Below are positions 1 to 34,760 of a stretch of 64,000 nucleotides of DNA, piece after piece. The stretch is from assembly GCA_964242335.1 (NCBI GenBank), contig CAXTAY010000003.1:105069-169068 (forward strand), in the 5' to 3' direction. The notes under the pieces are model-generated. The model worked only from the letters and a program-made list of their open reading frames with translations. It made no database searches and had not been told where the DNA came from. A program made the translations under genes and the position numbers. Position 1 is the first letter of the stretch, and each line of letters begins with the position of its first letter. Source of the DNA: an uncultured Acetobacteraceae bacterium (GTDB lineage: Bacteria > Pseudomonadota > Alphaproteobacteria > Acetobacterales > Acetobacteraceae).

Positions 1-245
1 GCATGAGAGCCTCTAACCGGTTGGGCGCCGTGCCGGACGTCGCCGCATGTAACACCGAACATCGCGCCGAACAGTGCCGGAAGACGCAGGTTAGCCGCTG
101 ATGCCGTACGGTCAATCACGGAGCCGCATCCGCCCGCCTACTGTTCAGCAGGGTGCGCCTGCGCTAGACGACCCTCCTCCATCGCGGTCTGGGAAATCAG
201 GACAGCAGGGTTCATCATGATCGTCTCGTCGCCTTGGCATCGTCG

Positions 246-1484
246 ATGAAAATCCTTTTCGCCTTCGAGAACGTCTTACCCAGTGACGAGGCGGACGCCG
301 AGGTCTTCGTAACGACCGCACGATATCTCGCGCCGCTGTCGTCGCGATCCTGGCTCCACGTGCCGCTGCCGGCCAGCACCGCTCCCGCCGCGGCCGCGGC
401 GCTGGCCGGCTTGCCGATCGTACGTGCCTATGCACCGGTGCGGCCCGCGGCATTGAGACATCTATGCTGCGGGCTGACCCTGGTCATGCGCGCGGAGTAC
501 TGGCAGGCCGACCTCGTCTATACGCGCAACCTCTGGGTCGCCTGGATGGCGATGCTGTTCGGAAAGCCCGTCGCGTTCGATCATTACCGCCCGTGGCCGG
601 ACCAGATCCCACCGCTCCAGCTCTGGATCTATCACCTCATCTGTAACAAGAGGTTTCTGATCAACATCTGTCACTCCGACTATACGAGAAAAAAATACCT
701 GAGCCTCGGCGTTCCGGAGAGCAAGCTGCGCTGCGTCCACAACGGATATGAGCCACAGCGTCTGGTAACGCCGCTCCCGGTGGAAGCCGCCAAGCGGGCG
801 ATCGGCGTGCTCGATGGAAGGAGAACGGTCGTCTATACCGGACGGCTCAATCACAAGAAGGGCCTCGCCCTGGTGATCGAGGCGGCGCGGCGACTACCGG
901 ATCTCGTGTTCATCCTGGTCGGCTCGTACGGCGAGGGCCCGATCGAGACGATGGCAAGCCCGGTCGCCAACGTCAGGATCGTCCGTTGGCAATCGCCGGA
1001 GATGTTGCCCCAGTACATCTTCGCGGCCGATGTCCTGCTGATCCCACCTTCCTGGAAGCCGCTCGCCGCGTTCGGCTCGACGGTGCTGCCGTTGAAGCTG
1101 TTCTTCTACATGGCCTCGGGCCGACCGATCCTCGCCGGCGCCACGCCCGACGTACGAGAGGTCCTGAGACATGACGAGAATGCCTTCCTCTGTATCCCGG
1201 ACTGTCCGGACTCGCTGGTCGACGGGATCACCGCGCTGACGCAGGACACGATGCGCGCGAAGCGGCTCGCCGCGACGGCGCTGTCGGAAAGTCGGGATTT
1301 CACCTGGCAGGCTCGGGCGCACAGGATCGTCGATATCCTCGCCGACCGGCTCCGCTCGGGGTCGTCGGAGCCCGGCCACTGGGGCGCCGTGCAGGGCCGC
1401 ACCTGGATGTGGCAGTCCTGGCGCTGGCTGGTGTATCTGATCCGCGCCAGATCCTGGGTTCTGCCCCCGGCTGAGGCCGACTAG
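246..1484 (+). CDS. Glycosyltransferase, family 4 (GT-B fold)
   Basis: ORF 234..1484. The ATG at 246 gives MKILFAFENV, a typical GT4 N-terminus. The C-terminal half looks like a GT-B donor-binding region (GRLNHKKG...LLIPPSW...KLFFYMASGRPILA). Confidence 0.8.
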   Translation: MKILFAFENVLPSDEADAEVFVTTARYLAPLSSRSWLHVPLPASTAPAAAAALAGLPIVRAYAPVRPAALRHLCCGLTLVMRAEYWQADLVYTRNLWVAWMAMLFGKPVAFDHYRPWPDQIPPLQLWIYHLICNKRFLINICHSDYTRKKYLSLGVPESKLRCVHNGYEPQRLVTPLPVEAAKRAIGVLDGRRTVVYTGRLNHKKGLALVIEAARRLPDLVFILVGSYGEGPIETMASPVANVRIVRWQSPEMLPQYIFAADVLLIPPSWKPLAAFGSTVLPLKLFFYMASGRPILAGATPDVREVLRHDENAFLCIPDCPDSLVDGITALTQDTMRAKRLAATALSESRDFTWQARAHRIVDILADRLRSGSSEPGHWGAVQGRTWMWQSWRWLVYLIRARSWVLPPAEAD

Positions 1485-1523: not shown

Positions 1524-2963
1524 ATGGACAGCTATCACCGACGTCTCGGCCGCGGCTTCAACTGGCTCGGTGGTGCTACGGTCATCGCCAAGGTCATCGA
1601 CTTCTCGACGATCCTGGTGATGCTGCTTTACCTGACCAAGCAGCAGGTCGGTGTCGCCTCGCTCGTCGTCTCGTTCGGCATGATCATCGAGGCGCTGAAC
1701 GGACTGGGTATCAGCGAGGCACTGATACAGGTCCGGTCGGTGACCCGACTGCAGCTCGACACGTTGTTCTGGTACGTCGTCGGGGCGGCCCTGACGGTGA
1801 GCACGCTCACCCTGCTCGCGGCGCCCTGGATCGAGGCGGCGTACGGCGTATCCGGGATGGCCCGGTATCTTCTCGTCATCGCGGTCAAGCAGCCCCTCGT
1901 CGGCGTCGCGTTGATCCCGCTGGCGATCATGAACAGGGAGCTGCAGTACGGACGCATCGCGACCGTCAACGTGTTCGCGACACTGGCCGCGGCGCTGACC
2001 CGGCTCGGCCTCGCGGCCGCCGGAGCAGGGGCGTGGGCGCTGGTCGTCGGATATTCGGCGAGCGGCCTCTACATACTGATCGGCGCGCTGCTGGCCCGCC
2101 CGTTTCGGCCGCGACTGCGCTGCCAGCTCTCGACCATACGGCCGCTGATCCGCTTCGGGACACGTGCCGTCGCGGCGAACCTGGGCGAGCAGATCTTCAA
2201 GAACATGGACTACCTGTTGATCGGGTGGTTCTACGGTCCGTCACAGCTGGCGGTGTATCGGGTCGCGTTCGATGTCGCCATGGAGCCGGCGATGGCGGTC
2301 GGCACGCTGGTCAGCCGCACGGCCCTGCCGGTGTTCGCGCGCCTCTCGGCGGTCAGGCAGCAGCTCGGGCAGATCTTCACCTGGTCGCTGCGCCGGATCG
2401 CGATCCTGGTCGCGCCGCTGATGGTGGGCCTGATGCTCGTCGCCGACCCGCTGACCGCCCTGCTTCACGACGATCGGGGCAACAGCTACGCCGCCGCGGC
2501 GGTGCCGCTCAAGCTGCTGGCCGCCGCCGCGTTGCTCCGGGTGACGGTGCAGCTCCTGTCGGCCGTCATGATGGGGACGGGGCGACCCGGCATCGCAGCC
2601 GGCCTCTCCTTGACGACGCTGCTGTCGTTGAGCCTGGGCATCCTGGTCGTCGGCTTCACGCTCCCGGCCCAGAGCGGCATCATCGCCGTCGCCGCGATCT
2701 GGTTGGGCATCTATCCGGTCCTGCTGCTCTGGGGATCGCGCTACCTGAGGGTGCATCTGAGCATCGCCGCCGCCGAACTCGCGCATGCCTTCAAGCTGCC
2801 CCTCGTCGGCATCGGCATCATGGTCACGGGCACGGAGGTGATCCGCCACCTGACCGCCGGCAGCGGTCCCAGGATCCAGATCGCCGTCGTCGTGCTGATG
2901 GTGACGCTGACCTATGCCGGCCTGTTCCTGCACGGCCGCCACCGACCCGAACCGGCACCGTGA
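1524..2963 (+). CDS. Polysaccharide/oligosaccharide flippase (MOP superfamily, Wzx-like)
   Basis: ORF 1524..2963, 479 aa. It is hydrophobic throughout with about 12-14 TM-like segments, and the N-terminus (FNWLGGATVIAKVIDFSTILVMLLYLTKQQVG) is typical of polysaccharide biosynthesis (Wzx/RfbX) proteins. Confidence 0.8.
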   Translation: MDSYHRRLGRGFNWLGGATVIAKVIDFSTILVMLLYLTKQQVGVASLVVSFGMIIEALNGLGISEALIQVRSVTRLQLDTLFWYVVGAALTVSTLTLLAAPWIEAAYGVSGMARYLLVIAVKQPLVGVALIPLAIMNRELQYGRIATVNVFATLAAALTRLGLAAAGAGAWALVVGYSASGLYILIGALLARPFRPRLRCQLSTIRPLIRFGTRAVAANLGEQIFKNMDYLLIGWFYGPSQLAVYRVAFDVAMEPAMAVGTLVSRTALPVFARLSAVRQQLGQIFTWSLRRIAILVAPLMVGLMLVADPLTALLHDDRGNSYAAAAVPLKLLAAAALLRVTVQLLSAVMMGTGRPGIAAGLSLTTLLSLSLGILVVGFTLPAQSGIIAVAAIWLGIYPVLLLWGSRYLRVHLSIAAAELAHAFKLPLVGIGIMVTGTEVIRHLTAGSGPRIQIAVVVLMVTLTYAGLFLHGRHRPEPAP

Positions 2964-2982: not shown

Positions 2983-3966
2983 TCAGTGCGCGCCGGCCTT
3001 GGACGGGACCTGACTGCCGCGATAGCGATCGAACATGCTCATCTGGTGCACGCAGCTCAACGTGCAGGTCGGGCTGCAGGACTTCTCGGCGTGAAACTCG
3101 CGGCGGATATCCTCGCGCGTGTAGTCGAGCAACGGAATGCCCGGATAGCCGCGCTGCTGGGAACACCAGTGAACCTTCCCGTCCTCGGCGACGTACAGGT
3201 AGCGCGCACCCGCACGACACTTCCAGTCGTTGGTCTGGCCGTGCATCAGGTTCTTCTGGAACAGCCAGTAGTTCAGGCTGTGCACGATAGACGGCGAGAT
3301 CTTGGTGACCTGCGTGTAGGCCCGCAGCTGCTCCGCACTGAGCGGCCGCAACATGCCGGTGTGATCATGCAGCACCCCGACGGAATGCTGCAGACCATAC
3401 TTGGCCGCGGTCCTCGCCACCGTCACGACGTCCTGGGTGCGCTCGTTGGTGACCCCGAGCACGGAATTCACGTTCACCTTGAAGTGCGCATGCTTCGACA
3501 GCAACTCGAGCTTGTTCTCCACCGAGGCCAGGCTCTTCATCGACACATCATCGGGCTTGAGGTTGTCGATGCTGATCTGCATGCCCTGGAGGCCCGCCGC
3601 GTTGAGCCGCTCGATCCAGTTCCGGGTCAGCCGGAAGCCGTTGGTGATCATGGTGACGATCATGCCATGGTCCCGGGCGGCCCGGATCGCCTGATCGAGG
3701 TCGGGATGAAGCAGCGGCTCTCCGCCGGTGAAGGTGATCGATGCGGTTCTCAGGCCTGCGAGGTGGTCCACCCAGGTGAGGAGGTCCTGCAGCGGCACCG
3801 GCGGCGAGACGCTGTCATACTCGTTGCAGTATCCACATGAGAGATTGCAGCGCCGCGTGACGACGACCTGAGCCAGCAGCGGGTTGTAGCGCGAGCCGAT
3901 CGCACGCGCCAGGAAGCGTGCCCCGGAGACGAGGTTTCCTTTCTGCGCGGAGGTGCTGCTACTCAT
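2983..3966 (-). CDS. Radical SAM protein with a Cys-rich (SPASM/twitch-like) C-terminus
   Basis: This is the C-terminal 327 aa of ORF 2983..4566, starting at the ATG at 3966 (MSSSTSAQKGN). It carries the CxxxCxxC motif VVTRRCNLSCGYCNEY and a GGEPLL SAM-binding motif. C-terminal cysteines are present (WKCRAG...HWCSQQ...KSCSPTCTLSCVH). The upstream 200 aa of the long ORF is Cys/Arg/Ser-rich shadow frame overlapping the next gene. Confidence 0.85.
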   Translation of the reverse strand: MSSSTSAQKGNLVSGARFLARAIGSRYNPLLAQVVVTRRCNLSCGYCNEYDSVSPPVPLQDLLTWVDHLAGLRTASITFTGGEPLLHPDLDQAIRAARDHGMIVTMITNGFRLTRNWIERLNAAGLQGMQISIDNLKPDDVSMKSLASVENKLELLSKHAHFKVNVNSVLGVTNERTQDVVTVARTAAKYGLQHSVGVLHDHTGMLRPLSAEQLRAYTQVTKISPSIVHSLNYWLFQKNLMHGQTNDWKCRAGARYLYVAEDGKVHWCSQQRGYPGIPLLDYTREDIRREFHAEKSCSPTCTLSCVHQMSMFDRYRGSQVPSKAGAH

Positions 3967-4117: not shown

Positions 4118-5299
4118 TCAATCCCGTGCCTGGAGCTCACGAGGCCGGCATCGTGCACTTCCCCGTCTGCGGCTCGACAGCACGGCGTCGTAGAACGCTT
4201 CCAACTGCTCGCCCTGTCGGCGCAGGTCGAACTGCCGCTCGACGAAAGCCCGCGCCTGCACGCCCATGCGAAGCCGCGTTTCCGGCTGGTCGAGCAGATC
4301 GTTGATGCGCCCGGACAACGCGTCGACGTCACGTTCGGGCACCAGGAATCCAGTGTGGCCGTCGACGACGCCCTCGGGGATGCCGCCGACGCGCGAGGCC
4401 ACCACCGGCACCCCGGTGGCTGCGGCTTCGAGCAGCACCATGCCCAGGCCCTCGACCCTGCCCGTGATCGTGTGCACGCTGGGCAGCACCAGCATCGCGG
4501 CGCCGCGCATCCGGGCGACGACCTGCGCGTGCGGCAGCGCCCCGAGGAACTGCACGCGTGGCTCAAGCTGCAGCGTCTTCGTCAGCGCACGCAGCGAGCG
4601 GCGCAGCGGCCCGTCGCCGATGATGACCAGGTTGAAACCGGGATGCCGCCGTGCGACGGCCGCGAACGCGCGTATCAGATACTGGGTGCCCTTCATGTCC
4701 ACCAGTCGGGCGACGTGGAGCAGCGTCGGCGTCTCCTCGCTCGGATCACGTGGCTGGATCGCCCGGCAATCCACGCCGGTGTAGTGGACGCGGGTCAGTT
4801 CCGCGGGAAACCCCATTGCCAGGACCCGGCTGCGGATGAACGACGAGACGCAGAGGAACAGATCTCCCTCCCGGGCGAGGCGGCGCCGAAACAGCGGGTA
4901 ATTCGCCCAGGCCGGCGAACAGAGCAGGGCGGCGGTCGACAGCGTCGCGTCGAAGCCGTGGAACGTGGTGATCAGCGGCACGCCGAGCCTGCCGGCGAGC
5001 GGCAGCGCATAGACACCATCGACGCCGAAATGGGCATGGATGAGTGACGGCCGGTTCTCTCCCAGCAGCCGCTGATAGGGTCGGGCGGTTCGCGTGACCA
5101 TCTGCCAGCCGATGCGCGGCAGTGACCAGCGGGAGCCGAGATCCTGCAGCGCGAGCGACTGCGCTCCTGCCGGCGGGTCGCCGAAGCGCAGCCTTCCCAG
5201 ATAGAGCGGACGGTGGCGCCGCAGTTGCTGCGCCTGCTGCGTGATGAACGGCTCCGATATCCTGAAAAGGTTCTGACGGAAGATCGCAACCTGACGCAC
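4118..5299 (-). CDS. Glycosyltransferase, family 4 (GT-B fold)
   Basis: ORF 4118..5299, 393 aa, with GT4 hallmarks (HAHFGVDG...; VARLVDMKG...IIGDGPLR...VLPSV...EGLGMVLLEAAATGVPVVASRVGGIPE). Confidence 0.85.
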   Translation of the reverse strand: MRQVAIFRQNLFRISEPFITQQAQQLRRHRPLYLGRLRFGDPPAGAQSLALQDLGSRWSLPRIGWQMVTRTARPYQRLLGENRPSLIHAHFGVDGVYALPLAGRLGVPLITTFHGFDATLSTAALLCSPAWANYPLFRRRLAREGDLFLCVSSFIRSRVLAMGFPAELTRVHYTGVDCRAIQPRDPSEETPTLLHVARLVDMKGTQYLIRAFAAVARRHPGFNLVIIGDGPLRRSLRALTKTLQLEPRVQFLGALPHAQVVARMRGAAMLVLPSVHTITGRVEGLGMVLLEAAATGVPVVASRVGGIPEGVVDGHTGFLVPERDVDALSGRINDLLDQPETRLRMGVQARAFVERQFDLRRQGEQLEAFYDAVLSSRRRGSARCRPRELQARD

Positions 5300-5429
5300 G
5301 CGTGCTCTCTGTCCGCCGCAGCAAGCCGATCGGTCAATACCACGAGGACGATGATGTCAATGACCGACCGCTTCACCCGTCGGTCCGGCGGCGGCCGCAT
5401 CCGAGCCTGACGTCGCCGGGATCCCAGCC

Positions 5430-5446
5430 CGAAACCATTGGTTTCG
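5430..5446. promoter_or_regulatory. Candidate operator palindrome in a divergent promoter region
   Basis: CGAAACCA-T-TGGTTTCG has perfect 8-nt arms and lies in the 281-nt gap between divergent glycosyltransferase genes (5299 minus / 5581 plus). About one such palindrome is expected by chance in 64 kb, so this is weak. Confidence 0.2.
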
Positions 5447-5580
5447 CACGCTTTCGCTAAAGCAAACGGACCCGGGCGCGGTGTCGCCGCCGGTCGGACA
5501 GCGGCCCCGCGATTGGACTTCGAGGGTGCGCTCCTATAGCTTGCCCCTGCCGCATTGCACCGCCATCAGGCCGAAGCTCC

Positions 5581-6549
5581 ATGACGATACCTGCCCGACT
5601 GCATTTCTGCCTGATCGGGACGAGCCTACCCTGGGCCTACGTGTTCGCAGTGCTCTCCGCCGCCGAACGGAGCGGGCTTTCCGAAATCGTGCTTCATCAC
5701 ACGGATCTGATTGAGGATGGCGAAGCGTTGCGTGCGCTGAAAGGCGCACCTCGGGTGTGCCTGTCTCCCGTCGAACCCATGAGCTTCCTGACGCAGACGG
5801 GGCAGATGCTCGGGCTGGGCGACCGGCTGGCGCTGCTCTACCGCGGTCTGGCGAGTCCGGTGATCCGGTCCGATATCCTGCGGGTGGCGATATTGTACGC
5901 CCACGGGGGGATCTATCTCGATCTGGACACCGTGACCGTCGCCTCACTGCTTCCGCTGACCGGAGTGCCGCAGTTCGTCGGTTCCGAGTTCATCGTCTGG
6001 CCGCACTTCGTGCGGATCTCGCGATCGCCCACGTTATGGGCGCGTCATCTCGCCCTCGACCTGCTGCGCAAGGCGCTCCGCAAGATACCCCACGGCTGGC
6101 AGGCATTCAGGAAGATAGAGAGGCTCTACTCCCTGCACGTCAATAATGCGGCGATGGGAGCCGAGGCGAACTCGAGCCTGTTCTCGTCCTACCTGCACGC
6201 GATGCTGGACCTGTCGCCGGAACGTCAGATGCAGCGCTACGCCCTGGGGCCGAAGCTGCTTCAGGAGGTGGTCCAGCACCATCGGCCCGATGACCTGACC
6301 ATCCAGGAGCCGCAGGTATTCTACCCGCTGCCGCCGGAGATCTCCGAGCACTGGTTCCGACCGGTGCGCGTCGTGCGGCTGGACGAGGTGCTGTCGACGC
6401 AGACGCGCGTCGTGCATTGGTATGCGTCGGTTCGCACCAAGCCGCTGGTGGCCCAGATCAGCCCGGGATATGTGAGGCAGCATCGAGAACGGCAATTGTA
6501 CAGCGCGCTGGTATGTTCATGTATTGACGAGCTACCGGAAGCGGCATGA
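5581..6549 (+). CDS. Glycosyltransferase with DXD sugar-binding region (Och1/Sur1-like, Gly_transf_sug type)
   Basis: ORF 5581..6549. The motif SDILRVAILYAHGGIYLDLDTV matches the conserved block (sD.lRy..Ly..GGiYlDlD) of the DXD-containing mannosyltransferase family. Confidence 0.8.
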   Translation: MTIPARLHFCLIGTSLPWAYVFAVLSAAERSGLSEIVLHHTDLIEDGEALRALKGAPRVCLSPVEPMSFLTQTGQMLGLGDRLALLYRGLASPVIRSDILRVAILYAHGGIYLDLDTVTVASLLPLTGVPQFVGSEFIVWPHFVRISRSPTLWARHLALDLLRKALRKIPHGWQAFRKIERLYSLHVNNAAMGAEANSSLFSSYLHAMLDLSPERQMQRYALGPKLLQEVVQHHRPDDLTIQEPQVFYPLPPEISEHWFRPVRVVRLDEVLSTQTRVVHWYASVRTKPLVAQISPGYVRQHRERQLYSALVCSCIDELPEAA

Positions 6550-6592
6550 TCCGCGGCAGATGAATTCGATCAACGGAATAAGGTAAATAGAG

Positions 6593-7738
6593 ATGGTCAA
6601 AGGCAAGATCCGCATCGCGATCGTAGGTGTGGGGAACTGCGCGAGCGCGCTGATCCAGGGCATTCACTACTACACGCCCGAGCGCTGCCGCGAGGGCGTC
6701 GTGGGTTTGATGCACACCGAGATCGGCGGCTATCTGCCGTGCGACATCGAGGTGGTCGCGGCCTTCGACGTCGACGTCCGCAAGGTCGGCTCGGACCTCA
6801 GTCACGCCATCTTCTGCAAGCCGAACTGCACCCGCGTCTTCCAGCGCGACATCCCCAAGGCCGGCGTGACCGTCCGCATGGGGCAGGTGCTGGACGGCAT
6901 TTCCGAGCATATGGGCGACTACGCCGACGACCGCACGCTGATCCGCTCCGAGGCGAGGGAGCTCACCAAGGCGGAGATCGTCGACGAGCTCAGGCAGAGC
7001 GGTGCCGAGATCCTGTTGAACTACGTCCCGGTCGGATCGGAGGAAGCCGCGCGCTTCTACGCGGAGTGCGCGCTCGATGCGGACATCGCGTTCATCAACA
7101 ACATGCCGGTGTTCCTCGCCAGCAACGAGGCGGTCGCGGAGAAGTTCAGGGCACGCAACCTGCCGATCATCGGCGACGATATCAAGTCCCAGCTCGGCGC
7201 CACCATCGCGCACCGCGTGCTGACCGACCTGTTCGCCAAGCGCGGCGTCAAGCTGCTCAGGACCTACCAGCTCAATACCGGCGGCAACACCGACTTCCTC
7301 AACATGAAGAACCAGGAACGCCTGCTGTCGAAGAAGACATCGAAGACCGAGGCGGTGCAGTCGGTGGCCAAGAAGCGTATTGCCGACGACAACATCCATG
7401 TCGGGCCGAGCGACTACGTGCCGTGGCAGAACGACAACAAGGTCTGCTTCCTCAGGATGGAAGGGCATCTGTTCGGCGATACCCCGATGGAGCTGGAACT
7501 CAGGCTCTCGGTGGAAGACTCGCCGAATTCCGCCGGCGTGGTGATCGACATGATCCGGTGCTGCAAGCTGGCGCTGCAGAACGGCGTCGGGGGTGTGCTC
7601 GAGGGTCCCAGCGCCTATTTCTGCAAGCATCCGCCGAGGCAGTTCACCGACGACGAAGCATACAAGATGGTAGAGGCCTTCATACGCACGCACACCGCGG
7701 AGCTCTATCCGATGCTCGAGGTGCCTGCCACCCTATGA
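6593..7738 (+). CDS. ino1: myo-Inositol-1-phosphate (inositol-3-phosphate) synthase
   Basis: ORF 6593..7738, 381 aa, with a Rossmann N-terminus IAIVGVGNCASALIQG plus the NTGGNTDF and SKKTSKTE blocks typical of bacterial/archaeal MIPS. Its stop overlaps the next start (ATGA at 7735-7738). Confidence 0.92.
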   Translation: MVKGKIRIAIVGVGNCASALIQGIHYYTPERCREGVVGLMHTEIGGYLPCDIEVVAAFDVDVRKVGSDLSHAIFCKPNCTRVFQRDIPKAGVTVRMGQVLDGISEHMGDYADDRTLIRSEARELTKAEIVDELRQSGAEILLNYVPVGSEEAARFYAECALDADIAFINNMPVFLASNEAVAEKFRARNLPIIGDDIKSQLGATIAHRVLTDLFAKRGVKLLRTYQLNTGGNTDFLNMKNQERLLSKKTSKTEAVQSVAKKRIADDNIHVGPSDYVPWQNDNKVCFLRMEGHLFGDTPMELELRLSVEDSPNSAGVVIDMIRCCKLALQNGVGGVLEGPSAYFCKHPPRQFTDDEAYKMVEAFIRTHTAELYPMLEVPATL

Positions 7739-8451
7739 AATGCCTCATCGTCGCCGCCGGACAAGGTGCTCGGTTGCGAGAGAAGCTCGAGCTCAAACCG
7801 CTGATCCCGATCAAGGGCATCCCGCTCATCGAGCACGTGATCGATCGCGGCCGCCGGGCCGGCATCGATGAGTTCCTGGTCGTCAGCGGCTACCGGGGAG
7901 AGGAACTGCGCGAGGCGCTCGATGCGTTCTCCACCAGGGAAGGCGTTCCTGTCGGCCATATCATCAACGAGGAGTGGGACCGCTCCAACGGGGTCTCGGT
8001 GCTCAAGGGCAAGCCCTATCTCGACGCGCCCTTCCTGTTGATGATGTGCGATCACATCGTCGATCCGGAGCTGCTCCGCGGCGTGATGGCGGCTCCGATC
8101 GAGCCGGGCACCGTGATCCTGGCGGTCGATTTCAACATCCACAGCTCGATCAACGACCTGGAGGACGTCACGCGCGTGAGATGTTCCTCCAGCCGGATCG
8201 AGCATGTCGGCAAGCTGATCGCCGACTTCAACGGCTTCGACACGGGCGTGTTTCTCTGCACTCCGATCATCTTCGAGGCCCTGGAGCAGAGTCAGGCTGC
8301 CGGAGACGAAAGCATCTCCGGTGCCATGAACGTGCTCGCGCGGTGGGAGAGGGCGCACTTCCTCGACGTGCAGGACAAGCTCTGGATCGACGTCGACGAT
8401 GCGGTCGCCTTCGCCAAGGCCGAGAGGTTGCTCGAGCTGGGACGGCTGTGA
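7735..8451 (+). CDS. Nucleotidyltransferase (candidate CTP:inositol-1-phosphate cytidylyltransferase, IPCT-like)
   Basis: In-frame ATG at 7735 within ORF 6739..8451. The start MKCLIVAAGQGARLREKLELKPLIPIKG is the G-x-G-x-R-(L) NTP-transferase loop. The gene is 238 aa and has 4-nt overlaps with both neighbours. Confidence 0.85.
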   Translation: MKCLIVAAGQGARLREKLELKPLIPIKGIPLIEHVIDRGRRAGIDEFLVVSGYRGEELREALDAFSTREGVPVGHIINEEWDRSNGVSVLKGKPYLDAPFLLMMCDHIVDPELLRGVMAAPIEPGTVILAVDFNIHSSINDLEDVTRVRCSSSRIEHVGKLIADFNGFDTGVFLCTPIIFEALEQSQAAGDESISGAMNVLARWERAHFLDVQDKLWIDVDDAVAFAKAERLLELGRL

Positions 8452-9374
8452 CGCGCGGATCCGGGTCCGCGATCCGCGCGGCGGACGACGCCGAGACGGT
8501 CACGCAGCCGCAGAGCGCCGAGGCGGTCAGGCGGACGTTGGAGATAGAGGAGACCACCAACCGCTACTTCATCCATCCGGTCGCGAACCGGTTGGCACGG
8601 CTCTTCGCGCGCTTGCATGTCCGACCGAACAGCGTGTCCATCGCCGGCATGGCGTTCGGCGTATCCGCCGGCTTCGCCTATTACCACTACCGCGACGTGC
8701 GGTTCGCGATCGGCGGCTTTGCGCTCATGGTCGCCTGGCATGTCATGGATGGTGCCGACGGACAGCTCGCCCGTCTGACGCGGTCCCAGTCGCAATCGGG
8801 CAAGATCCTCGACGGCGTCTGTGACTACGTGACCTTCATCGCCGTCTACCTTGCCCTGGGCCTCGCGCTGAGTGCGCAGTACGGATACCGCGTATGGATC
8901 CTGATCGTGCTCTCCGGCGCCTGCCACGCGGTCCAGTCTGCCGTATACGAGGTGCAGCGGCAGGATTACGATTTCTGGGGCTGGGGGAAGCAATCGGCGC
9001 AGCTGTCGGAGCTTCGGGCGCCGCCGGCGCGGCAGCGGATCGCCGATCGGCTGCATCGGCTCTATGCGAGGGTTCAGCTCGTCGCGGCCGGCCTCGACAG
9101 CCGCTCCCGACGCAGCCTGACGGAGATCCTGGAACGTCAGCCGCAACGGGCGCCATCGATCCGTCGAACGTATCGCGAACGGTTCGCGCCGGCGACGCGA
9201 CACTGGTCGGTGATGTCGGCGAACTATCGTACGCTGGGGATATTCGTCGCCGCCCTGTTCGGTGTGCCGTTGTTCTATTTCTGCTTCGAGATCATCGGGC
9301 TGAGCGCGATCCTGATCGTCCTTCTGCGTCGGCAGCGCGATCGCTACGCGGCGTTCCTGAACGGGATCAGGTGA
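8448..9374 (+). CDS. CDP-alcohol phosphotransferase family membrane protein (DIPPS/PIP-synthase-like)
   Basis: GTG at 8448 (GTGA overlap) within ORF 7974..9374. It has the complete signature DGADGQLAR-x8-GKILDGVCD and multiple hydrophobic helices. Confidence 0.85.
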   Translation: MTRGSGSAIRAADDAETVTQPQSAEAVRRTLEIEETTNRYFIHPVANRLARLFARLHVRPNSVSIAGMAFGVSAGFAYYHYRDVRFAIGGFALMVAWHVMDGADGQLARLTRSQSQSGKILDGVCDYVTFIAVYLALGLALSAQYGYRVWILIVLSGACHAVQSAVYEVQRQDYDFWGWGKQSAQLSELRAPPARQRIADRLHRLYARVQLVAAGLDSRSRRSLTEILERQPQRAPSIRRTYRERFAPATRHWSVMSANYRTLGIFVAALFGVPLFYFCFEIIGLSAILIVLLRRQRDRYAAFLNGIR

Positions 9375-10465
9375 GCCAGGCCGGCCGAAGGCTTGCCGCG
9401 ATGCGCGTTGCGGAACAGGGCGATCGCCGCGACCATCACCAGGATCGAGGGCGTCAGCGCCGTGACCGCGGGGTTCACGTCGAGCAGCAGGCCCAGATGG
9501 CCGATGATCTGCTGGCCCAGCGAGAACACGATGCCGAAGCTCGCGCCGGCTGCGAGATAGGATCCGGCGTTCTGCGTCCGTGCCGATCCGAACACGAACG
9601 GTGCCACGATCATGATCATGGCGATCATCGAGAACGGAAGGCTGGCCTTGGCCCAGAGCTGCTGCTCGTACCGGATCGCCTTCTGGTGCCGGCGCTGCAG
9701 GGTGCGGATGTGCTGGTACAACGCGCTCGGCGGGATGCTCTCCAGGGGAAGCATCAGGAAGCGTATCTCCTGGATCGGCACGAAGCAGTGCCAGGACAGC
9801 GAGGCGAGATGCTCCGTCTTCAGCTGCGATGATTCGACGCGTCTTCTCGACACGTCCCTGAGCAGCCAGACCCCGTCGGGCCGAACATCGGCCTGCTCCG
9901 CATGGATGATGCTCTGCAGGCTCCCGTCCGCCTCGAAACTGTAGAGATCGATATCGATGGGCACCTGACCGCTGCGCAGTCGCTGCACGTTGAGATAGCG
10001 ACGGTCGCTCTGCGCCCAGAAACCGCTGTCGGCGTGGGAAGACGTCGAGGATGACAGGGCAACGGTACGCTGTTCCTGTGCCAGTCGCTGCGCCGGCGGG
10101 ATGACGAACTCCGCGGTCAGGAACAACGCCGTGACGATCGGAAAGATCAGCCTGAGCACCGACCCGACGATGCGGATCTCGGAGACGCCGAGACTCAGCA
10201 TCGCCGTGAGCTCGGAGTTCCTGGCCAGCGCACCGAGCGTAAGCAGGGAGCCCAGCAGCATGGAGACCGGCGTCACCTGCAGCAGCCGGGACGGCGCGGT
10301 CAGCAGCACGTAGAGGAGCGCATCCGTGACGTTGTACTGCCCCTGACCGACATAGGCGAGCTGCTCGACGAACTCCAGCAGGCTGAACAGCCCGGTCAGT
10401 GCCACCGCGACCCAGACGAAGGCCCGGAAGGCGGCGAACTCCACGTAGCGCCTAACCAGGATCAT
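9344..10465 (-). CDS. lptG: LPS export ABC transporter permease LptG
   Basis: ORF 9344..10465, 373 aa. The N-terminus MILVRRYVEFAAFRAF... and the YjgP/YjgQ permease topology fit LptG, and it lies directly downstream of lptF. Confidence 0.85.
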   Translation of the reverse strand: MILVRRYVEFAAFRAFVWVAVALTGLFSLLEFVEQLAYVGQGQYNVTDALLYVLLTAPSRLLQVTPVSMLLGSLLTLGALARNSELTAMLSLGVSEIRIVGSVLRLIFPIVTALFLTAEFVIPPAQRLAQEQRTVALSSSTSSHADSGFWAQSDRRYLNVQRLRSGQVPIDIDLYSFEADGSLQSIIHAEQADVRPDGVWLLRDVSRRRVESSQLKTEHLASLSWHCFVPIQEIRFLMLPLESIPPSALYQHIRTLQRRHQKAIRYEQQLWAKASLPFSMIAMIMIVAPFVFGSARTQNAGSYLAAGASFGIVFSLGQQIIGHLGLLLDVNPAVTALTPSILVMVAAIALFRNAHRGKPSAGLAHLIPFRNAA

Positions 10466-10474
10466 GGCGATCCG

Positions 10475-11704
10475 TCATGTACGCCCACGCCTGAGTGCCA
10501 GTCTCGGTCCATAGGTGGTGGAGAGCAGAAGCAAGGCGAGCAGCCCCGGAGCCCACCAGATACCCGGAAACCGCGGCATCATGCCGTGCTGCACCCAGGT
10601 TCGGGCCGAGGTGCAGAGCAGGTAATAGCCGAAATACACGATGAGCGCGGTGCCGAACCGCGCGTATCTGCCTTGCCGCGGCCTGGTGCGGCTCAGCGGT
10701 ATGCCCAGCATGCCGAGCAGCAGCGTCGACAGCGGCGTCGACAGCCGCCATTGCAGCTCGGCGGTATCTTCAGCGGAACCGGAAGCGGCGAGGTGCGCGC
10801 TGCTCGCGGCGACGGCGCTGTATCCGAGGGGTTCGCGGTCTCGGCCTTCCGGAAACACCGTCAGTCCGTTCGCATGCACCGCCTGATCGGGCTGGGCCCT
10901 GTCGCGGTCTATCTCGTAGATGTAGGCGTCGCTCATATAGACTTCCGGATCGCTGTCCGGCGCGGTCTGCGCGAGCTTGTAGGCGCGCTGGGCATGGATG
11001 ATCTCGGTGCGGTCGCTGTGCCGGAGCTTGACGAAGACGTCGCGCGCCGGGGCGCCGGGCCCGTCACGATGCGCCAGGAAGATCACCCGGGTGCCGTCGC
11101 GCCCGACATAGAAGGAGTTCGCCTCCATCGCGTTGACGTCGAGCAGGGTGCCGGCCTGGCTCGAGAGCTCGTGCAGTCTCTCGTACGCCCAGGGTCTGAC
11201 GATCAGCGACAGGGCGGCGACCACGAGGGCCAGGTAGCCCGACAGGGTCAGCACCGCCCGCATCATCGTCGCCGGCGTCAGGCGCAGGGCGAACATCGCC
11301 GCGAACTCGGACTCGCTGTACAACCTCGCGAACGACAGCATGACCGAGATATAGAGCGAGGCCGGTATCAGCACCTCGAGCGAGATCAGGACCTTCAGGC
11401 CGACCAGTTCCGCGATCGCACTGGCCGGCAGCAGCCCGTCGACCGCGTCGGACAGGAAGCCGCTGGCGCTGTAGCTGGCGAACAGCGCGAGCAGGATGCC
11501 GAGGATGATCGCGAGCGGCTTGCTCAGCTCACGCACCAGGTAGCGGTTGATGATCAAGACCGACGGCCGCCGATCCGCGCCCAGGCGGGGACGGTGCCCG
11601 CGGCGCCGCCGGAGGGCATGATCCTCGCGCTCGAAGAGGCTGTAGCCAAGCTCCGACAGGGCATTCGTGAGTGGTCCCGGCAGTCGTGGGTCCGGATCTA
11701 GCAC
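10475..11704 (-). CDS. lptF: LPS export ABC transporter permease LptF
   Basis: ORF 10475..11704. The conserved start region LIINRYLVRELSKPL is typical of LptF. The true start may be the TTG at 11557, because the 49-aa N-terminal extension from the ATG at 11704 is atypical. Confidence 0.8.
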   Translation of the reverse strand: MLDPDPRLPGPLTNALSELGYSLFEREDHALRRRRGHRPRLGADRRPSVLIINRYLVRELSKPLAIILGILLALFASYSASGFLSDAVDGLLPASAIAELVGLKVLISLEVLIPASLYISVMLSFARLYSESEFAAMFALRLTPATMMRAVLTLSGYLALVVAALSLIVRPWAYERLHELSSQAGTLLDVNAMEANSFYVGRDGTRVIFLAHRDGPGAPARDVFVKLRHSDRTEIIHAQRAYKLAQTAPDSDPEVYMSDAYIYEIDRDRAQPDQAVHANGLTVFPEGRDREPLGYSAVAASSAHLAASGSAEDTAELQWRLSTPLSTLLLGMLGIPLSRTRPRQGRYARFGTALIVYFGYYLLCTSARTWVQHGMMPRFPGIWWAPGLLALLLLSTTYGPRLALRRGRT

Positions 11705-11886
11705 ACCTCGACCCGGAAACCACGTGCGGGCGAAGTATCCGCCGCGGCCTCGGGCAGGGCCGCCGGTCGATCACCTGTCGCCTCGTGGCGGAGGCTGCGC
11801 GACGGGCGGGATCAGCCGCTTGCGCATCGCGTCCCGGCGCACGATGGATGTGCCGTCACTTGAACTCGAATTGCATCGGGGCTGCG

Positions 11887-12969
11887 ATGAAGCACGGTCA
11901 TGATCCCAAACTCCGCCTCGGCCAGTCGTTGCGGCAGGCCTCGAGCTTCTCGCCCGGGCTCACCGACGCGCCGCCGCTGCCGGTGGTGAACTACGCCGCC
12001 CTGAACAGGACGGCGCCGGAGCTGCTGCAGACACCGGCGGGCACGCTGCCGAAGGCCTCGGCGGTGGTGATCACCTGGGCCGAAGCCGAGTGGGCGGCGC
12101 TTCAGCATGTGTTCTGCAGCGGCGGCTCACCGATGCCCTACGCCGATCGGTCGCGCGGCGACTGGCCGGGCTGGGAGAAGTACGCCGCGGACCTGCCGCA
12201 GGGCGCACCGTCCGGTTGGGGATACTGGGGCAGTTATCGCCTGGTGGAACTTGGCAGCAAACCGGTGCTGCTGTTCAAGTCGAACACGCATCTCGACTGG
12301 CCGGGCGCCAGCTTCCTGCGGACGCTGATCGAGCGCCTGGTCTCCGAGGTCGAGCCGGCCCTGATCATGTCCATCGGCACCGCAGGCGGGGCCAACACCA
12401 CGGACCATGTCGGCACGGTGCGCGCGGTGAGTGCCGGAACCCTCTACGAAGCCGGTCAACCGGCGGCTCGCTGGCCGGAGTACAAGAACGGCTGGACGGC
12501 GAGCGACGTGCTGCTGGGAGACTCGAATTTCCACACGCTGCTGTTCCCGGTGCCGACCAGTGCGAGCGCGCTGGACGCGCTGAGTGCCGGGTTCAACCAG
12601 CATTACCGTACCAGCTACACGCTCGACCAGCTCGATCCCGACGGGCTGAACCTGGGCGACGCGGTGCCGCGGATCGACGACCAGACCGGCGGCGCCGCCT
12701 CGCTGCTGACCACGTCCAGCTTCGTGGTCGGCACGACGGCGGGCGACTACCAGGCCTACACGTCGATCGAGATGGACGACGCCGTCATCGGCGAGGCGTG
12801 CGCCGCCAGCGGCACCGCGTTCGCGTTCGTGCGCAACATCTCCGATCCGGTGCAGAACGCTGCACTGCCGGCCGAGGTGCAGGGCAACTGGGGGAGTGCC
12901 GTCTACGACGCCTACGGTTTCTACACCAGCTACAACGGCGCGATCGCCGCCTGGGCGATGCTCGCCTGA
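11887..12969 (+). CDS. Nucleoside phosphorylase-superfamily (PNP/UDP fold) protein, function unknown
   Basis: ATG at 11887 (MKHGHDPKL) within ORF 11671..12969. Blocks resemble the PNP_UDP family (IMSIGTAGG; SIEMDDAVIGEA; FAFVRNISD). Confidence 0.6.
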   Translation: MKHGHDPKLRLGQSLRQASSFSPGLTDAPPLPVVNYAALNRTAPELLQTPAGTLPKASAVVITWAEAEWAALQHVFCSGGSPMPYADRSRGDWPGWEKYAADLPQGAPSGWGYWGSYRLVELGSKPVLLFKSNTHLDWPGASFLRTLIERLVSEVEPALIMSIGTAGGANTTDHVGTVRAVSAGTLYEAGQPAARWPEYKNGWTASDVLLGDSNFHTLLFPVPTSASALDALSAGFNQHYRTSYTLDQLDPDGLNLGDAVPRIDDQTGGAASLLTTSSFVVGTTAGDYQAYTSIEMDDAVIGEACAASGTAFAFVRNISDPVQNAALPAEVQGNWGSAVYDAYGFYTSYNGAIAAWAMLA

Positions 12970-24048: not shown

Positions 24049-25317
24049 ATGTCCGAGCGCGACCTGCTGCTGCGCATGTTCCGGGCCGCCGTCGCCGCCG
24101 CGGCGCCGGAGCTGTGCCTGCCGCCGCACCTGCCGTCGCCGCCCCGGGGGCGCACGGTGGTGGTGGGTGCCGGCAAGGCCGCTGCGGCGATGGCCCACGT
24201 GGTGGAGCGGCACTGGCCGGCGGACCGCGCGCTGTCCGGGCTGGTGGTCACCCGCTACGGGCACGGGGTGGGCCCGCTCGCGCGGATCGAGGTGGTGGAG
24301 GCGAGCCATCCGGTGCCGGACGAAGCGGGCGAGGTCGCGGCCGGCCGCATGCTGCAGCTGGTGCGCGGCCTGGGTCCGGACGACCTGGTGCTGTGCCTGA
24401 TCTCCGGCGGCGGCTCGTCGCTGCTGGCGCTGCCGGCACCGGGGCTGGAGCTCGCCGACAAGCAGGCGGTCAACCGCGCGCTGCTGCGCAGCGGTGCGGG
24501 CATCCACGAGATCAACTGCGTGCGCAAGCACCTGTCGGCGATCAAGGGCGGCCGGCTGGCGCAGGCGGCGGCACCGGCGAGGCTGGTGACGCTGCTGATC
24601 TCGGACGTGCCCGGCGACGACGCCTCGGTGATCGCGTCCGGCCCCACGGTGCCCGACCGCAGCACGCTGGCCGACGCGCGCGCGGTGCTGGCGCGCTGGC
24701 GCATCGAGCCGACGCCGGCGGTGCTGGCGCGGCTGCACGACCCCATGGCGGAGACGCCAAAGCCCGGCGACGCCGTCTTCGCGCACGCGCGGACCGTGAT
24801 GGTGGCGAGCCCGCAGGCGTCGCTGGAGGCGGCCGCGGCGCTGGCCCGCGCGGCCGGCGTCGTGCCGGTGATCCTGGGCGACGCGATCGAGGGGGAGGCG
24901 GCCGAGGTCGCCCGGGTGATGGCCGGCATCGCCCGACAATGCGCGCTGCACGGCCAGCCGGCGGCAGCACCGTGCGTGCTGATCTCCGGCGGCGAGACCA
25001 GCGTCACCGTGCGCGGCGGCGGCCGCGGCGGCCGCAACGCCGAGTTCCTGCTCGGGCTCGCGGTGGCGCTGGACGGCCATCGCGGCATCCACGCGATCGC
25101 CTGCGACACCGACGGCATCGACGGCACCGAGGACAACGCCGGCGCGCTGCTCTCGCCCGACAGCCTGGCGCGGGCGGGCTCGCTCGGCGTGCGGGCCCGC
25201 GACCGGCTCGCGGACAATGACGGCTACGGTTTCTTCTCGGCGCTCGATGACCTGGTGGTCACCGGGCCCACATGCACCAACGTGAACGATTTCCGTGCGA
25301 TCCTGATCCGCACCTGA
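24049..25317 (+). CDS. Glycerate 2-kinase (MOFRL/TtuD-type; often annotated hydroxypyruvate reductase)
   Basis: ORF 24049..25317, 422 aa, with VVGAGKAAAAMA near the N-terminus and the C-terminal MOFRL-like block TDGIDG...NDGY.FF..L.DL..TGPT.TNVND. Confidence 0.85.
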   Translation: MSERDLLLRMFRAAVAAAAPELCLPPHLPSPPRGRTVVVGAGKAAAAMAHVVERHWPADRALSGLVVTRYGHGVGPLARIEVVEASHPVPDEAGEVAAGRMLQLVRGLGPDDLVLCLISGGGSSLLALPAPGLELADKQAVNRALLRSGAGIHEINCVRKHLSAIKGGRLAQAAAPARLVTLLISDVPGDDASVIASGPTVPDRSTLADARAVLARWRIEPTPAVLARLHDPMAETPKPGDAVFAHARTVMVASPQASLEAAAALARAAGVVPVILGDAIEGEAAEVARVMAGIARQCALHGQPAAAPCVLISGGETSVTVRGGGRGGRNAEFLLGLAVALDGHRGIHAIACDTDGIDGTEDNAGALLSPDSLARAGSLGVRARDRLADNDGYGFFSALDDLVVTGPTCTNVNDFRAILIRT

Positions 25318-25362
25318 ACCAACACGAACGCGGCGGGAAACGCCGCGCAGCGGAGGAACATC

Positions 25363-26853: not shown

Positions 26854-26882
26854 CTGCCATCCCGTCTTCAGGAGTGCCCGGC

Positions 26883-28130: not shown

Positions 28131-28134
28131 CATC

Positions 28135-34757: not shown

Positions 34758-34760
34758 GGG

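Follow-up and report, generated by a model that had tools for sequence, protein, structure and literature searches.

Three overlapping genes at positions 6593-9374 of a 64,000-nucleotide stretch from an uncultured Acetobacteraceae bacterium (contig CAXTAY010000003.1; this whole stretch is called the window below) encode a myo-inositol-1-phosphate synthase (MIPS), a cytidylyltransferase and a CDP-alcohol phosphotransferase. This trio most likely provides the head group within a conserved cluster of about 11 genes for an envelope glycolipid, and the product to be expected from the gene content is most likely a glycosylated inositol-phosphoceramide that is exported to the outer membrane. The parts of this proposal differ in strength. 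It seems reasonably probable that the trio makes CDP-inositol and that phospho-inositol is placed on a membrane lipid, which is then glycosylated, flipped and exported by the LptFG pair of the cluster. That the accepting lipid in this organism is ceramide has, in our estimate, an even chance; the chance is higher for those relatives in which the cluster is linked to ceramide genes. Somewhat short of even, and thus tentative, is the wider proposal that a group of mostly acid-tolerant Proteobacteria (Acidocella, Gluconacetobacter, Nitrospirillum, Aliidongia, lichen-associated Acetobacteraceae and some Gammaproteobacteria) make an inositol-phosphoceramide decorated with hexose and glucosamine (GlcN), resembling glycosyl-inositol-phosphoceramides (GIPCs) or glycosylphosphatidylinositol (GPI), via CDP-inositol and with the third enzyme of the trio acting directly on ceramide.

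The trio lies on the plus strand of the window, which has a G+C content of 68.7%. Gene 1 (6593-7738; 381 aa, ATG start) encodes the MIPS (inositol-3-phosphate synthase), gene 2 (7735-8451; 238 aa, ATG start) the cytidylyltransferase, which resembles CTP:inositol-1-phosphate cytidylyltransferase (IPCT) and is predicted to have this activity, and gene 3 (8448-9374; 308 aa, GTG start) a CDP-alcohol phosphotransferase of a distinct subfamily. Consecutive genes overlap by 4 nt: the ATG of gene 2 lies within ATGA at 7735-7738 and the GTG of gene 3 within GTGA at 8448-8451. These overlaps had been named in the original prediction, as had the motifs of the three proteins, and all of them were found again, i. 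e. GVGNCASALIQG, NTGGNTDF and SKKTSKTE in gene 1, the N-terminal NTP-transferase loop of the form G-x-G-x-R...K, present as MKCLIVAAGQGARL...KPLIPI, in gene 2, and in gene 3 the complete signature DGADGQLAR-LTRSQSQS-GKILDGVCD (D-G-x2-A-R-x8-G-x3-D-x3-D). Family profile searches likewise confirmed the assignment of genes 1, 2 and 3 to the MIPS, NTP_transferase and CDP-OH_P_transferase classes, respectively.

Gene 1 matches the Pfam family Inos-1-P_synth (PF01658) with E = 2.5e-35 and aligns over its full length with Ino1 of M. tuberculosis (PDB 1gr0; 3.5e-110, residues 5-364 on 15-365). A five-membered-cyclitol-phosphate synthase (6k96), the closest other candidate, matches far less well (3.1e-56). 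The alignment with TIGR03450, the model for the mycothiol-type INO1, is also full-length, yet its 423.5 bits are under the cut-off of 638. By this score gene 1 falls outside the actinobacterial mycothiol-linked subtype, which does not argue against MIPS activity. Judged by these matches, gene 1 encodes a true inositol-phosphate synthase.

Gene 2 matches NTP_transf_3 of Pfam (6.9e-15). Its top NCBIfam match is the IPCT half of NF041135 (5.7e-30), an archaeal model for the fusion of IPCT with the di-myo-inositol-phosphate phosphate synthase DIPPS, and the runner-up family follows with 1.8e-18. The score of 104.6 bits against a cut-off of 580 has to be read with regard to this model, which was built on the fused IPCT/DIPPS of Thermococcales; a stand-alone IPCT model does not exist in the NCBIfam library. 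In the PDB the top matches are the IPCTs 2xme (2.7e-14), 4mnd and 4jd0, each aligned end to end. By family assignment, gene 2 is thus an IPCT-like cytidylyltransferase.

Gene 3 matches CDP-OH_P_transf (PF01066) with 1.5e-11 but reached the cut-off of none of the NCBIfam equivalog models. Its signature (DGADGQLARLTRSQSQSGKILDGVCD) lies on the second and third of six predicted transmembrane helices, and the signature residues are invariant in 31 homologs. Many residues are invariant in this alignment also in the C-terminal half of the protein and in a helical insert of about 90 residues (168-259). This conserved insert marks gene 3, as far as can be judged from the alignment, as a CDP-alcohol phosphotransferase subfamily of its own. 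For gene 3, 775 homologs were found among 90%-identity clusters (E<1e-5), and the full-length architecture is present in 215 50%-identity clusters (E<=1e-30). The closest relatives are encoded in metagenome-assembled genomes (MAGs) of Acetobacteraceae (76-79% identity). Their matches begin at residue 1, and this conservation of the N-terminus supports the GTG start. In more distant homologs the match sets in only near residue 22, and the structural model shows residues 1-26 as disordered.

When the PDB was searched with the profile of the gene 3 family, AF2299 ranked first, followed by choline/ethanolamine phosphotransferases and then by phosphatidylinositol-phosphate (PIP) synthase. Choline/ethanolamine phosphotransferases use a soluble CDP-alcohol as the donor and a lipid as the acceptor. 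Another CDP-alcohol phosphotransferase, CPES of Drosophila, transfers phosphoethanolamine to ceramide. The AlphaFold (AF2) model of gene 3 (pLDDT 84) matches the fold of AF2299 with a TM-score of 0.50, that of PIP synthase with about 0.36 and that of DIPPS with 0.39, values which do not discriminate between acceptors. Members of the family occur in fusions. P0362 carries a C-terminal IspD/TarI-type cytidylyltransferase (379 bits), P0364 an N-terminal PfkB sugar/polyol kinase, and the more distant P0494 an N-terminal NTP transferase related to gene 2 together with an uncharacterised middle region of 290 aa. These architectures suggest a soluble CDP-alcohol as the donor rather than CDP-diacylglycerol, and since the fusion partners differ, they also suggest that the family uses various CDP-polyols.

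When one genome per species was scanned with gene 3, 169 relatives were obtained, and 80 loci were kept. The cluster, which consists of a family 32 glycosyltransferase (GT32), the trio, the convergent LptG and LptF genes, two family 4 glycosyltransferases (GT4a and GT4b) and a MOP flippase, is conserved across these 80 further loci. A cytidylyltransferase is encoded directly upstream of the gene 3 homolog in 69 of 76 loci, and MIPS is found in the trio position in 52 of 71. The stop codon of MIPS overlaps the start codon of the cytidylyltransferase by 4 nt in 46 of 58 loci and by 1 nt in 11, i. e. in 57 of 58 in all. The trio arrangement is beyond chance. Downstream of the gene 3 homolog, the convergent pair LptG and LptF is present in 67 of 73 loci. 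The remaining genes were counted in the 45 loci whose flanks extend for 9 kb or more in either direction, called well-flanked below: GT4a homologs were found in 33, always adjoining the flippase gene, the MOP flippase in 28, GT4b in 32, GT32 in 27 (usually directly upstream of MIPS) and a PIG-L deacetylase in 26. In two Gammaproteobacteria MAGs (L074, L079) the gene order is scrambled, yet the set is kept (MIPS, NTP transferase, flippase, LptG/F, GT4, PIG-L, CDP-alcohol phosphotransferase, GT32). That the gene content is kept through rearrangement is good evidence that the genes work together.

The cultured hosts of the cluster are eight species of Gluconacetobacter, Acidocella (facilis, aromatica and others) and Nitrospirillum. 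The MAGs that carry it are labelled Lichenicoccus, Lichenicola, Aliidongia, Rhizomicrobium, Elstera, Bradyrhizobium, several Gammaproteobacteria, one Geothrix and one Nitrospirales. In the Geothrix MAG (L008), which was binned as Acidobacteriota, the full cluster is present with an LptG 59% identical to that of the window; on the contig labelled Nitrospirales (L080) the trio is present. Either the whole cluster was transferred horizontally or the contigs were mis-binned.

The link to sphingolipids comes from the wider neighbourhood of the relatives. In 28 of the 45 well-flanked loci the cluster is interleaved with ceramide-type genes of the kind known from Caulobacter, where a five-gene set (aas, cerR, acp, spt, cerS) has been described (PMC11324152; PMC11087976). 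Serine palmitoyltransferase (Spt) and an acyl carrier protein (ACP) were found in 26 loci each, a CerR-like reductase and a ligase in 28 each, and a GNAT protein, the candidate for cerS, in 24. ACP and Spt are encoded directly beyond LptF; the AMP-binding ligase, the CerR-like reductase and the GNAT protein lie beside GT32. Locus L082 may serve as an example. Its gene order is AMP-binding ligase, epimerase-fold reductase, GT32, MIPS, NTP transferase, CDP-alcohol phosphotransferase, then LptG and LptF on the opposite strand, acyl carrier protein, alpha-oxoamine synthase, GT4 and PIG-L, and finally the flippase and the second GT4, both again on the opposite strand; a GNAT domain is present in a 392-aa protein upstream. 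The oxoamine synthase of this locus scores 661 bits against the serine palmitoyltransferase equivalog NF047599 (cut-off 500), and Spt homologs in Lichenicoccus, Granulibacter, Komagataeibacter and Azospirillum bear the NCBI name serine palmitoyltransferase. In a neighbour-joining tree of the gene 3 homologs, loci with Spt, MIPS and Lpt are spread over the whole tree, including a deep branch of Gammaproteobacteria. For this reason the ceramide-linked state looks ancestral in the tree, and the clade of the window as well as the Gluconacetobacter/Lichenicola clade look derived. The envelope head group that had been proposed from the window is borne out by these findings; the likely acceptor can be sharpened to ceramide by a link to sphingolipid genes that had not been seen before.

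The permease genes next to the trio belong to the same picture. LptG (9344-10465, minus strand; PF03739 1.8e-67) and LptF (10475-11704, minus strand; PF03739 7.5e-51) had been described as simply abutting the trio. The adjacency was confirmed, but it understates the relation, as the pair is part of the cluster and represents a separate, patchily distributed lineage. When the cluster-linked LptG of G. dulcium was used as the query, the best 120 matches contained relatives with 71-92% identity only from Gluconacetobacter; beyond this genus the identity fell to 57% or less, in trio-bearing taxa only and in several cases on contigs of the same length as those with gene 3 matches, and none of the 120 came from Komagataeibacter, Acetobacter or Gluconobacter. 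A housekeeping gene would have close orthologs in these sister genera. By this pattern the cluster LptFG is therefore a separate lineage that travels with the cluster and not the ordinary housekeeping ortholog. Gene 3 and LptG are convergent, and their 3' ends overlap by 31 nt (9344-9374). Comparable overlaps are present in Lichenicola (L001, 10881-10909) and in an uncultured proteobacterium (L082, 10793-10900), and from the loci compared the tail-to-tail junction appears to be old and conserved.

A parallel exists in the sphingolipid exporters LptF2/G2 of Caulobacter (bioRxiv 10.64898/2026.04.12.717747). The sphingolipid locus of this organism encodes second copies of LptF, LptG and LptC (PMC11324152). 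LptF2 and LptG2 are required for sphingolipid export, the second copies bind each other and LptB and can be deleted only when the sphingolipid or its anionic head group is absent, and in Sphingomonas wittichii the LptFG pair of the sphingolipid locus is the only pair (10.64898/2026.04.12.717747). Within Acetobacteraceae a further type is found in the spt locus of Komagataeibacter (L085; CP043481.1), whose LptG and LptF score 181 and 187 bits, under the cut-offs of the lipopolysaccharide (LPS) exporter models. This LptG is only 23% identical to that of the window, and judged by sequence the LptFG of the window is not orthologous to this divergent type. In a Caulobacteraceae MAG (L084, 11560-13827) LptF and LptG are fused to one protein of 755 aa, which is encoded beside spt and a cerS-like gene; no CDP-alcohol phosphotransferase was found in this locus.

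Taken together, the genes suggest the following pathway. Gene 1 would convert glucose-6-phosphate to inositol-1-phosphate, from which gene 2 would form CDP-inositol with CTP. Gene 3 would transfer phospho-inositol from CDP-inositol to a lipid hydroxyl, probably that of (dihydro)ceramide, and thereby yield inositol-phosphoceramide. The GT32 and the two GT4 enzymes would add sugars to the inositol; most relatives also encode a PIG-L deacetylase, in place of which the clade of the window has the radical SAM enzyme. The MOP flippase would bring the glycolipid across the inner membrane, and the cluster LptFG, probably with LptB, would extract it toward the outer membrane.

The glycosylation genes have counterparts in eukaryotic and actinobacterial inositol chemistry. 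We take Sur1/Csg1, the synthase of mannosyl-inositol-phosphoceramide (MIPC) in yeast, and Gb3 synthase to be GT32 enzymes (PF04488), PIG-A to be a GT4, and PIG-L and MshB to be de-N-acetylases. Of the enzyme families known from the synthesis of eukaryotic MIPC and GIPC, the GPI core and mycothiol (MshA/MshB), a GT32 and an MshA/BshA-like GT4 stand here beside the inositol genes, and in most relatives a PIG-L does so as well. By analogy, this is the set that would be expected for placing hexose and GlcN on an inositol-phospho-lipid, and the pairing of GT4b with PIG-L would follow the logic of N-acetylglucosamine transfer and subsequent deacetylation in the synthesis of GPI, mycothiol and bacillithiol. 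The resemblance is one of families and not of orthologs. It also has limits in that the inositol-phosphoceramide synthase AUR1 of eukaryotes draws the head group from phosphatidylinositol (PI) and not from CDP-inositol, and in that the window has a radical SAM enzyme instead of PIG-L.

Several observations weigh against this pathway, and they concern the alcohol, the donor, the exporter and the acceptor in turn. As to the alcohol, CpgD of Caulobacter has its closest structural counterpart in an IPCT (4jd0) but turns 3-phosphoglycerate into CDP-glycerate (10.1101/2025.01.09.632243). Therefore likeness to IPCT alone does not establish the substrate of gene 2. Furthermore, 15 of 71 loci have no MIPS in reach. 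It could hence be argued that genes 2 and 3 are equivalents of CpgD and CpgA, that they handle a non-inositol CDP-alcohol, e. g. CDP-glycerate, and that MIPS serves another purpose such as providing an acceptor for the glycosyltransferases. Fusions of the wider gene 3 family to IspD-type cytidylyltransferases, by which the alcohol would vary, fit this as well. We nevertheless regard it as highly improbable. Inositol as the substrate of gene 2 is inferred mainly from the conserved coupling to a bona fide MIPS (57 of 58 loci). In addition, the cluster has neither a ceramide kinase (CpgB, DAGK_cat) nor a CpgC-type gene, both of which belong to the glycerate pathway and are present in the CPG-type locus L085 of Komagataeibacter. 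Between gene 2 and the CpgD-like protein of this locus there is no real similarity; the latter has no NCBIfam match at 1e-5, whereas gene 2 matches IPCT (5.7e-30).

Among the MIPS-less loci, L042, L043, L046, L052, L059, L068, L073 and L077, which come from Acetobacteraceae and Lichenicoccus MAGs, have GT32 directly followed by the cytidylyltransferase and the gene 3 homolog; in L043, L059, L073 and L077 ceramide genes are situated immediately upstream. No PfkB kinase was found in these loci. Either MIPS is encoded elsewhere in these genomes or a different alcohol is used.

The sphingolipid (CPG2) locus of Caulobacter, which comprises CpgD, CpgA/CC_1159, the putative flippase CC_1166 and LptF2/LptG2/LptC2 (PMC11324152; 10.1101/2025.01.09.632243; 10.64898/2026.04.12.717747), is among the closest known systems when compared by gene class and description, L085 of Komagataeibacter being a partial proxy at the level of sequence. 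Both have a COG1213/IPCT-like cytidylyltransferase that makes, or is predicted to make, a soluble CDP-alcohol for a CDP-alcohol phosphotransferase, in a locus with a flippase candidate and an LptFG-type pair, and most relatives of the window have the five ceramide genes (aas, cerR, acp, spt, cerS-type) in their locus. They differ in the alcohol, which in the window is predicted to be inositol, given the coupled MIPS, and not glycerate. As CpgB ceramide kinase and CpgC are missing, the head group would be placed directly onto ceramide. Three glycosyltransferases and PIG-L or the radical SAM enzyme are additional in the conserved cluster, where no LptC2 was seen. L085 itself is a spt locus of a CPG-like type with a DAGK_cat kinase, a Metallophos protein, the divergent LptF/LptG and an FA_hydroxylase, as well as a 255-aa NTP_transf_3 protein, a weakly TagF-like protein and a gene of the inositol-monophosphatase family. 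Since this locus differs in type from the cluster of the window, at least two different modules for the head group and the export of sphingolipids exist in Acetobacteraceae, judged by gene content.

As to the donor, the sequence comparisons of gene 3 are ambiguous. Its best NCBIfam scores are those for archaetidylinositol-phosphate (AIP) synthase (NF040950; 5.5e-15, 55.7 bits) and PIP synthase (NF045883; 5e-11, 42.6 bits). Both models describe enzymes that use a CDP-lipid donor and inositol-1-phosphate as the acceptor, and both outscore the DIPPS half of NF041135, which is the weakest inositol-related match of gene 3 (1.2e-5). PIP synthase also appears among its fold neighbours. Gene 3 could accordingly be of the PIP/AIP-synthase type, joining CDP-diacylglycerol and inositol-1-phosphate, with gene 2 activating an unrelated sugar-1-phosphate for the glycosyltransferases. 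The signature and the supply of inositol-1-phosphate by MIPS are indeed shared with the PIP synthase route (PgsA1 of actinobacteria, BT_1523 of Bacteroides) and with the archaeal AIP synthase. Yet the scores are far under the cut-offs of 180 (AIP) and 170 (PIP), and the TM-score with PIP synthase is low (about 0.36). With its conserved 90-residue insert gene 3 reaches 308 aa, whereas the PIP synthases among its fold neighbours have about 190-210 residues, longer entries being fusions. Gene 3 also has a dedicated IPCT-like partner: the best matches of gene 2 are by far IPCTs, and its start overlaps the stop codon of MIPS in 57 of 58 loci. The fusions of the gene 3 family, in turn, point to a soluble CDP-alcohol donor. 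Finally, neither a PIP phosphatase nor a HAD hydrolase, a priming phosphoglycosyltransferase acting on undecaprenyl phosphate, Wzy or a ligase was found in the conserved cluster (window and annotated relatives L001, L082 and L083). Their absence argues against the PIP-synthase route, against a route of the Bacteroidetes type and against an ordinary polysaccharide locus. In sum, a PIP/AIP-type function of gene 3 appears distinctly improbable.

The classes of the three enzymes and their order are the same as for the compatible solute di-myo-inositol phosphate of hyperthermophiles, and gene 2 is nearest to the IPCT domain of IPCT/DIPPS. A solute product is nevertheless to be rated as next to negligible. 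The match of gene 3 to DIPPS is weak (1.2e-5), the DIPPS structure 4mnd was not found by the gene 3 family profile in the PDB at E<0.01, and the TM-score is 0.39; gene 3 is thus further from DIPPS than from other CDP-alcohol phosphotransferases, in line with the preference that had been expressed for an envelope head group over a cytosolic solute. This preference is supported also by the conserved company of glycosyltransferases, flippase and LptFG in which the trio is embedded and by its hosts, which are mesophilic and mostly acid-tolerant Proteobacteria. No DIPP phosphatase is present. When compared with IPCT/DIPPS of A. fulgidus (2xme, 4mnd) and T. maritima (4jd0), the window shares a full-length gene 2 counterpart with a CDP-alcohol phosphotransferase encoded immediately downstream, and distant members of the gene 3 family are likewise fused to an NTP transferase. 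In contrast, the proteins of the window are separate, gene 3 has no close relation to DIPPS, a membrane lipid instead of inositol-1-phosphate is predicted as the acceptor, and the product would be an exported glycolipid instead of a solute.

As to the exporter, LptF and LptG of the window pass the NCBIfam equivalog cut-offs for LPS exporters (LptF: TIGR04407, 259.5 bits, cut-off 230; LptG: TIGR04408, 313.9 bits, cut-off 240). They could thus be the ordinary LPS exporter, and phospho-inositol could be placed onto a glycan or LPS, i. e. onto lipid A, the core or a lipid-linked oligosaccharide. A MOP flippase together with GT4 enzymes is typical of polysaccharide loci, and inositol has been detected in a Bacteroides capsule (Heaver et al., PMC9246714). 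Against this stands that a priming phosphoglycosyltransferase, Wzy, a chain-length regulator and a ligase are all missing from the conserved cluster, that the LptFG lineage follows the trio and had no orthologs in LPS-making sister genera among the best 120 matches, and that most relatives are linked to ceramide genes. A decoration of LPS or glycan therefore seems improbable to us.

As to the acceptor, no homologs of spt, acp, cerR and cerS are present in the 64-kb window, and in the closest relatives, in Lichenicola and in Gluconacetobacter ceramide genes are absent within 10 kb of the cluster. A search with Spt gave more than 8000 matches, and among the best 120 none was located on the cluster-bearing contigs of Lichenicola and Lichenicoccus. 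No lipid data for organisms that carry the cluster were found in the literature searched. The locus in the window is either a detached head-group and export module of a sphingolipid locus or one that has lost this link; either the ceramide genes must be located elsewhere in the genome or the acceptor must have changed in the clade of the window.

For this clade the main rival is a glycosyl-PI based on diacylglycerol (DAG), with gene 3 as a Kennedy-type phosphatidylinositol synthase and with GT32 and GT4 building an exported lipid similar to phosphatidylinositol mannosides or GPI. We take GT4 to be the family of the PI mannosyltransferases PimA and PimB and of PIG-A, which would suit such a product, as would the missing ceramide genes. 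Moreover, DAG is the acceptor in a route suggested for Bacteroides vulgatus and Prevotella, where a putative and unconfirmed cluster encodes MIPS, an NTP transferase, a CDP-alcohol phosphatidyltransferase and a HAD hydrolase (Heaver et al. 2022, PMC9246714). We still consider DAG unlikely. The gene 3 orthologs of the ceramide-linked loci and those of the clade of the window form one family, with 52-62% identity and an invariant C-terminal half, the ceramide-linked state looks ancestral, and the HAD hydrolase of the Bacteroidetes cluster is absent. The two clusters agree in the three adjoining enzyme classes, in the proposed CDP-inositol route and in an inositol sphingolipid as the end product. 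However, in Bacteroidetes DAG would be the first acceptor, from which the HAD hydrolase would transfer the head group to ceramide; the window, compared here by description, has no such hydrolase, adds GT32, GT4, flippase and LptFG, and belongs to Proteobacteria. A lipid similar to PI-dihydroceramide has been reported from Novosphingobium acidiphilum, which has no matching genes (Heaver et al., PMC9246714).

Neither a description of the cluster nor inositol sphingolipids tied to these taxa were found in the full-text literature searched. Its parts are known, namely the CDP-alcohol modules for the head groups of bacterial sphingolipids, the LptFG paralogs that serve in sphingolipid export, and IPCT. 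The view that the trio lies outside standard proteobacterial envelope biochemistry has thus to be qualified: a head-group module of this kind, CpgD/CpgA, is already described in Caulobacter, whereas its inositol version with glycosylation genes, as read from the gene set, is probably new, and so probably is a plant- or fungus-like inositol sphingolipid in Proteobacteria. The head groups described for proteobacterial sphingolipids are sugars, phosphoglycerate, phosphoglycerol and phosphoethanolamine. To our knowledge, bacterial inositol sphingolipids are established only in Bacteroidetes.

If the preferred reading, in which inositol phosphate is transferred from CDP-inositol to ceramide, is true, the cluster would provide a route to inositol-phosphoceramide that bypasses PI, unlike that of eukaryotic AUR1. 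It would also provide a bacterial set for GIPC- or GPI-like glycosylation (GT32, GT4, PIG-L) as a counterpart of fungal and plant MIPC and GIPC, and a further LptFG lineage tied to a lipid other than LPS, which bears on the transport of sphingolipids to the outer membrane. Cultured and tractable strains have the cluster, e. g. Acidocella facilis ATCC 35904, Gluconacetobacter liquefaciens DSM 5603 and Nitrospirillum amazonense. Hence the prediction is directly testable, and these strains would give experimental access to the 'alternative' inositol pathway, itself unconfirmed, that was proposed for gut Bacteroidetes.

In the window all the neighbours that had been claimed for the trio (three glycosyltransferases, a Wzx flippase, a radical SAM enzyme and lptFG) were found by profile searches. 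The outer end of the cluster is formed by GT4a (234-1484, plus strand; Glycos_transf_1 5.3e-17, Glyco_transf_4), followed by the MOP-family (Wzx-like) flippase (1524-2963, plus strand; Polysacc_synt_3 1e-55; NCBIfam 'MOP flippase family protein' 4e-43). The radical SAM gene (2983-3966; Radical_SAM 4.3e-20) and GT4b (4118-5299; Glycos_transf_1 4.9e-42) are on the minus strand and thus opposite to the trio, a detail absent from the original prediction. GT4b is BshA/MshA-like; its NCBIfam scores of 130 bits for WcaL, 116 for BshA and 105 for MshA, the D-inositol-3-phosphate glycosyltransferase, are all under the cut-offs. GT32 (5581-6549, plus strand) is the first gene of the operon. It matches Gly_transf_sug (PF04488) with 8.4e-9 and 36.5 bits (cut-off 23), and the region around its DXD motif (SDILRVAILYAHGGIYLDLD) gives weak PDB matches to Och1 (9n3s, E=0.12) and to the glycosyltransferase domain of a clostridial toxin.

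From the gene positions, the divergent gap between GT4b and the operon of GT32 and the trio (5300-5580) is presumed to be a bidirectional promoter region. A sigma-70 consensus scan of 5200-9600, including this gap, showed nothing above background. No terminator-like site was found by consensus scan within 5200-9600, which is compatible with GT32 and the trio being one operon. For LptF the TIGR04407 alignment starts at residue 51; judged by this, translation probably begins some 45-50 codons after the first GTG.

The radical SAM enzyme (327 aa, start placed at MSSSTSAQ) has the CxxxCxxC motif as CNLSCGYC. In the PDB it comes nearest, with matches confined to the radical SAM core, to the sugar decarboxylase BlsE and to GDGT-MAS, an enzyme of lipid tail coupling. 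In the clade of the window its gene occupies the position that PIG-L has downstream of GT4b in most other loci. In L082 this PIG-L passes the Pfam cut-off (31.7 vs 28.2) and its gene overlaps GT4b by 4 nt. The radical SAM gene was found only in the clade of the window and in a few other Acetobacteraceae MAGs; L010 has both PIG-L and radical SAM. Bradyrhizose, the inositol-fused sugar of the O-antigen of photosynthetic Bradyrhizobium, was considered as a product of MIPS and radical SAM and was rejected on three grounds: the literature assigns this sugar to a different cluster of 11 genes with a dTDP-glucose dehydratase, the relatives of the window are Acetobacteraceae, and the radical SAM gene is limited to a clade while the remaining cluster is widespread.

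The rest of the window contains genes of other kinds; tRNA genes, tmRNA genes and Rfam families at gathering score were not found anywhere in its 64 kb. Divergent from LptF, a 432-aa protein (11671-12969, plus strand) with a faint PNP_UDP_1/HpnG-like match (E of about 1e-4) is conserved only in the closest relatives of the window (L003-L006). At 24049-31148 a glycerate-kinase-like protein (DUF4147/MOFRL), a GlcD-like FAD oxidase, a GlcF-like Fe-S/CCG protein and an L-lactate permease form what looks, from these families, like a block for glycolate or lactate utilisation. A 1097-aa single-module protein resembling nonribosomal peptide synthetases (partial C, then A, T and TE domains) is encoded within 31443-36946; its neighbours are a cytochrome b561 and, on the opposite strand, a processive-type GT2 of 505 aa. 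This GT2 (34761-36278) was considered as a hint at ceramide on account of its Pfam match to GT21 ceramide glucosyltransferase, and was discarded, its NCBIfam similarity being only to generic processive GT2 enzymes. Finally, 59412-63304 encodes a 639-aa GDSL lipase, which is similar to the lysophospholipase PlaA and has an RTX-like C-terminal part, followed by an EAL-domain c-di-GMP phosphodiesterase.

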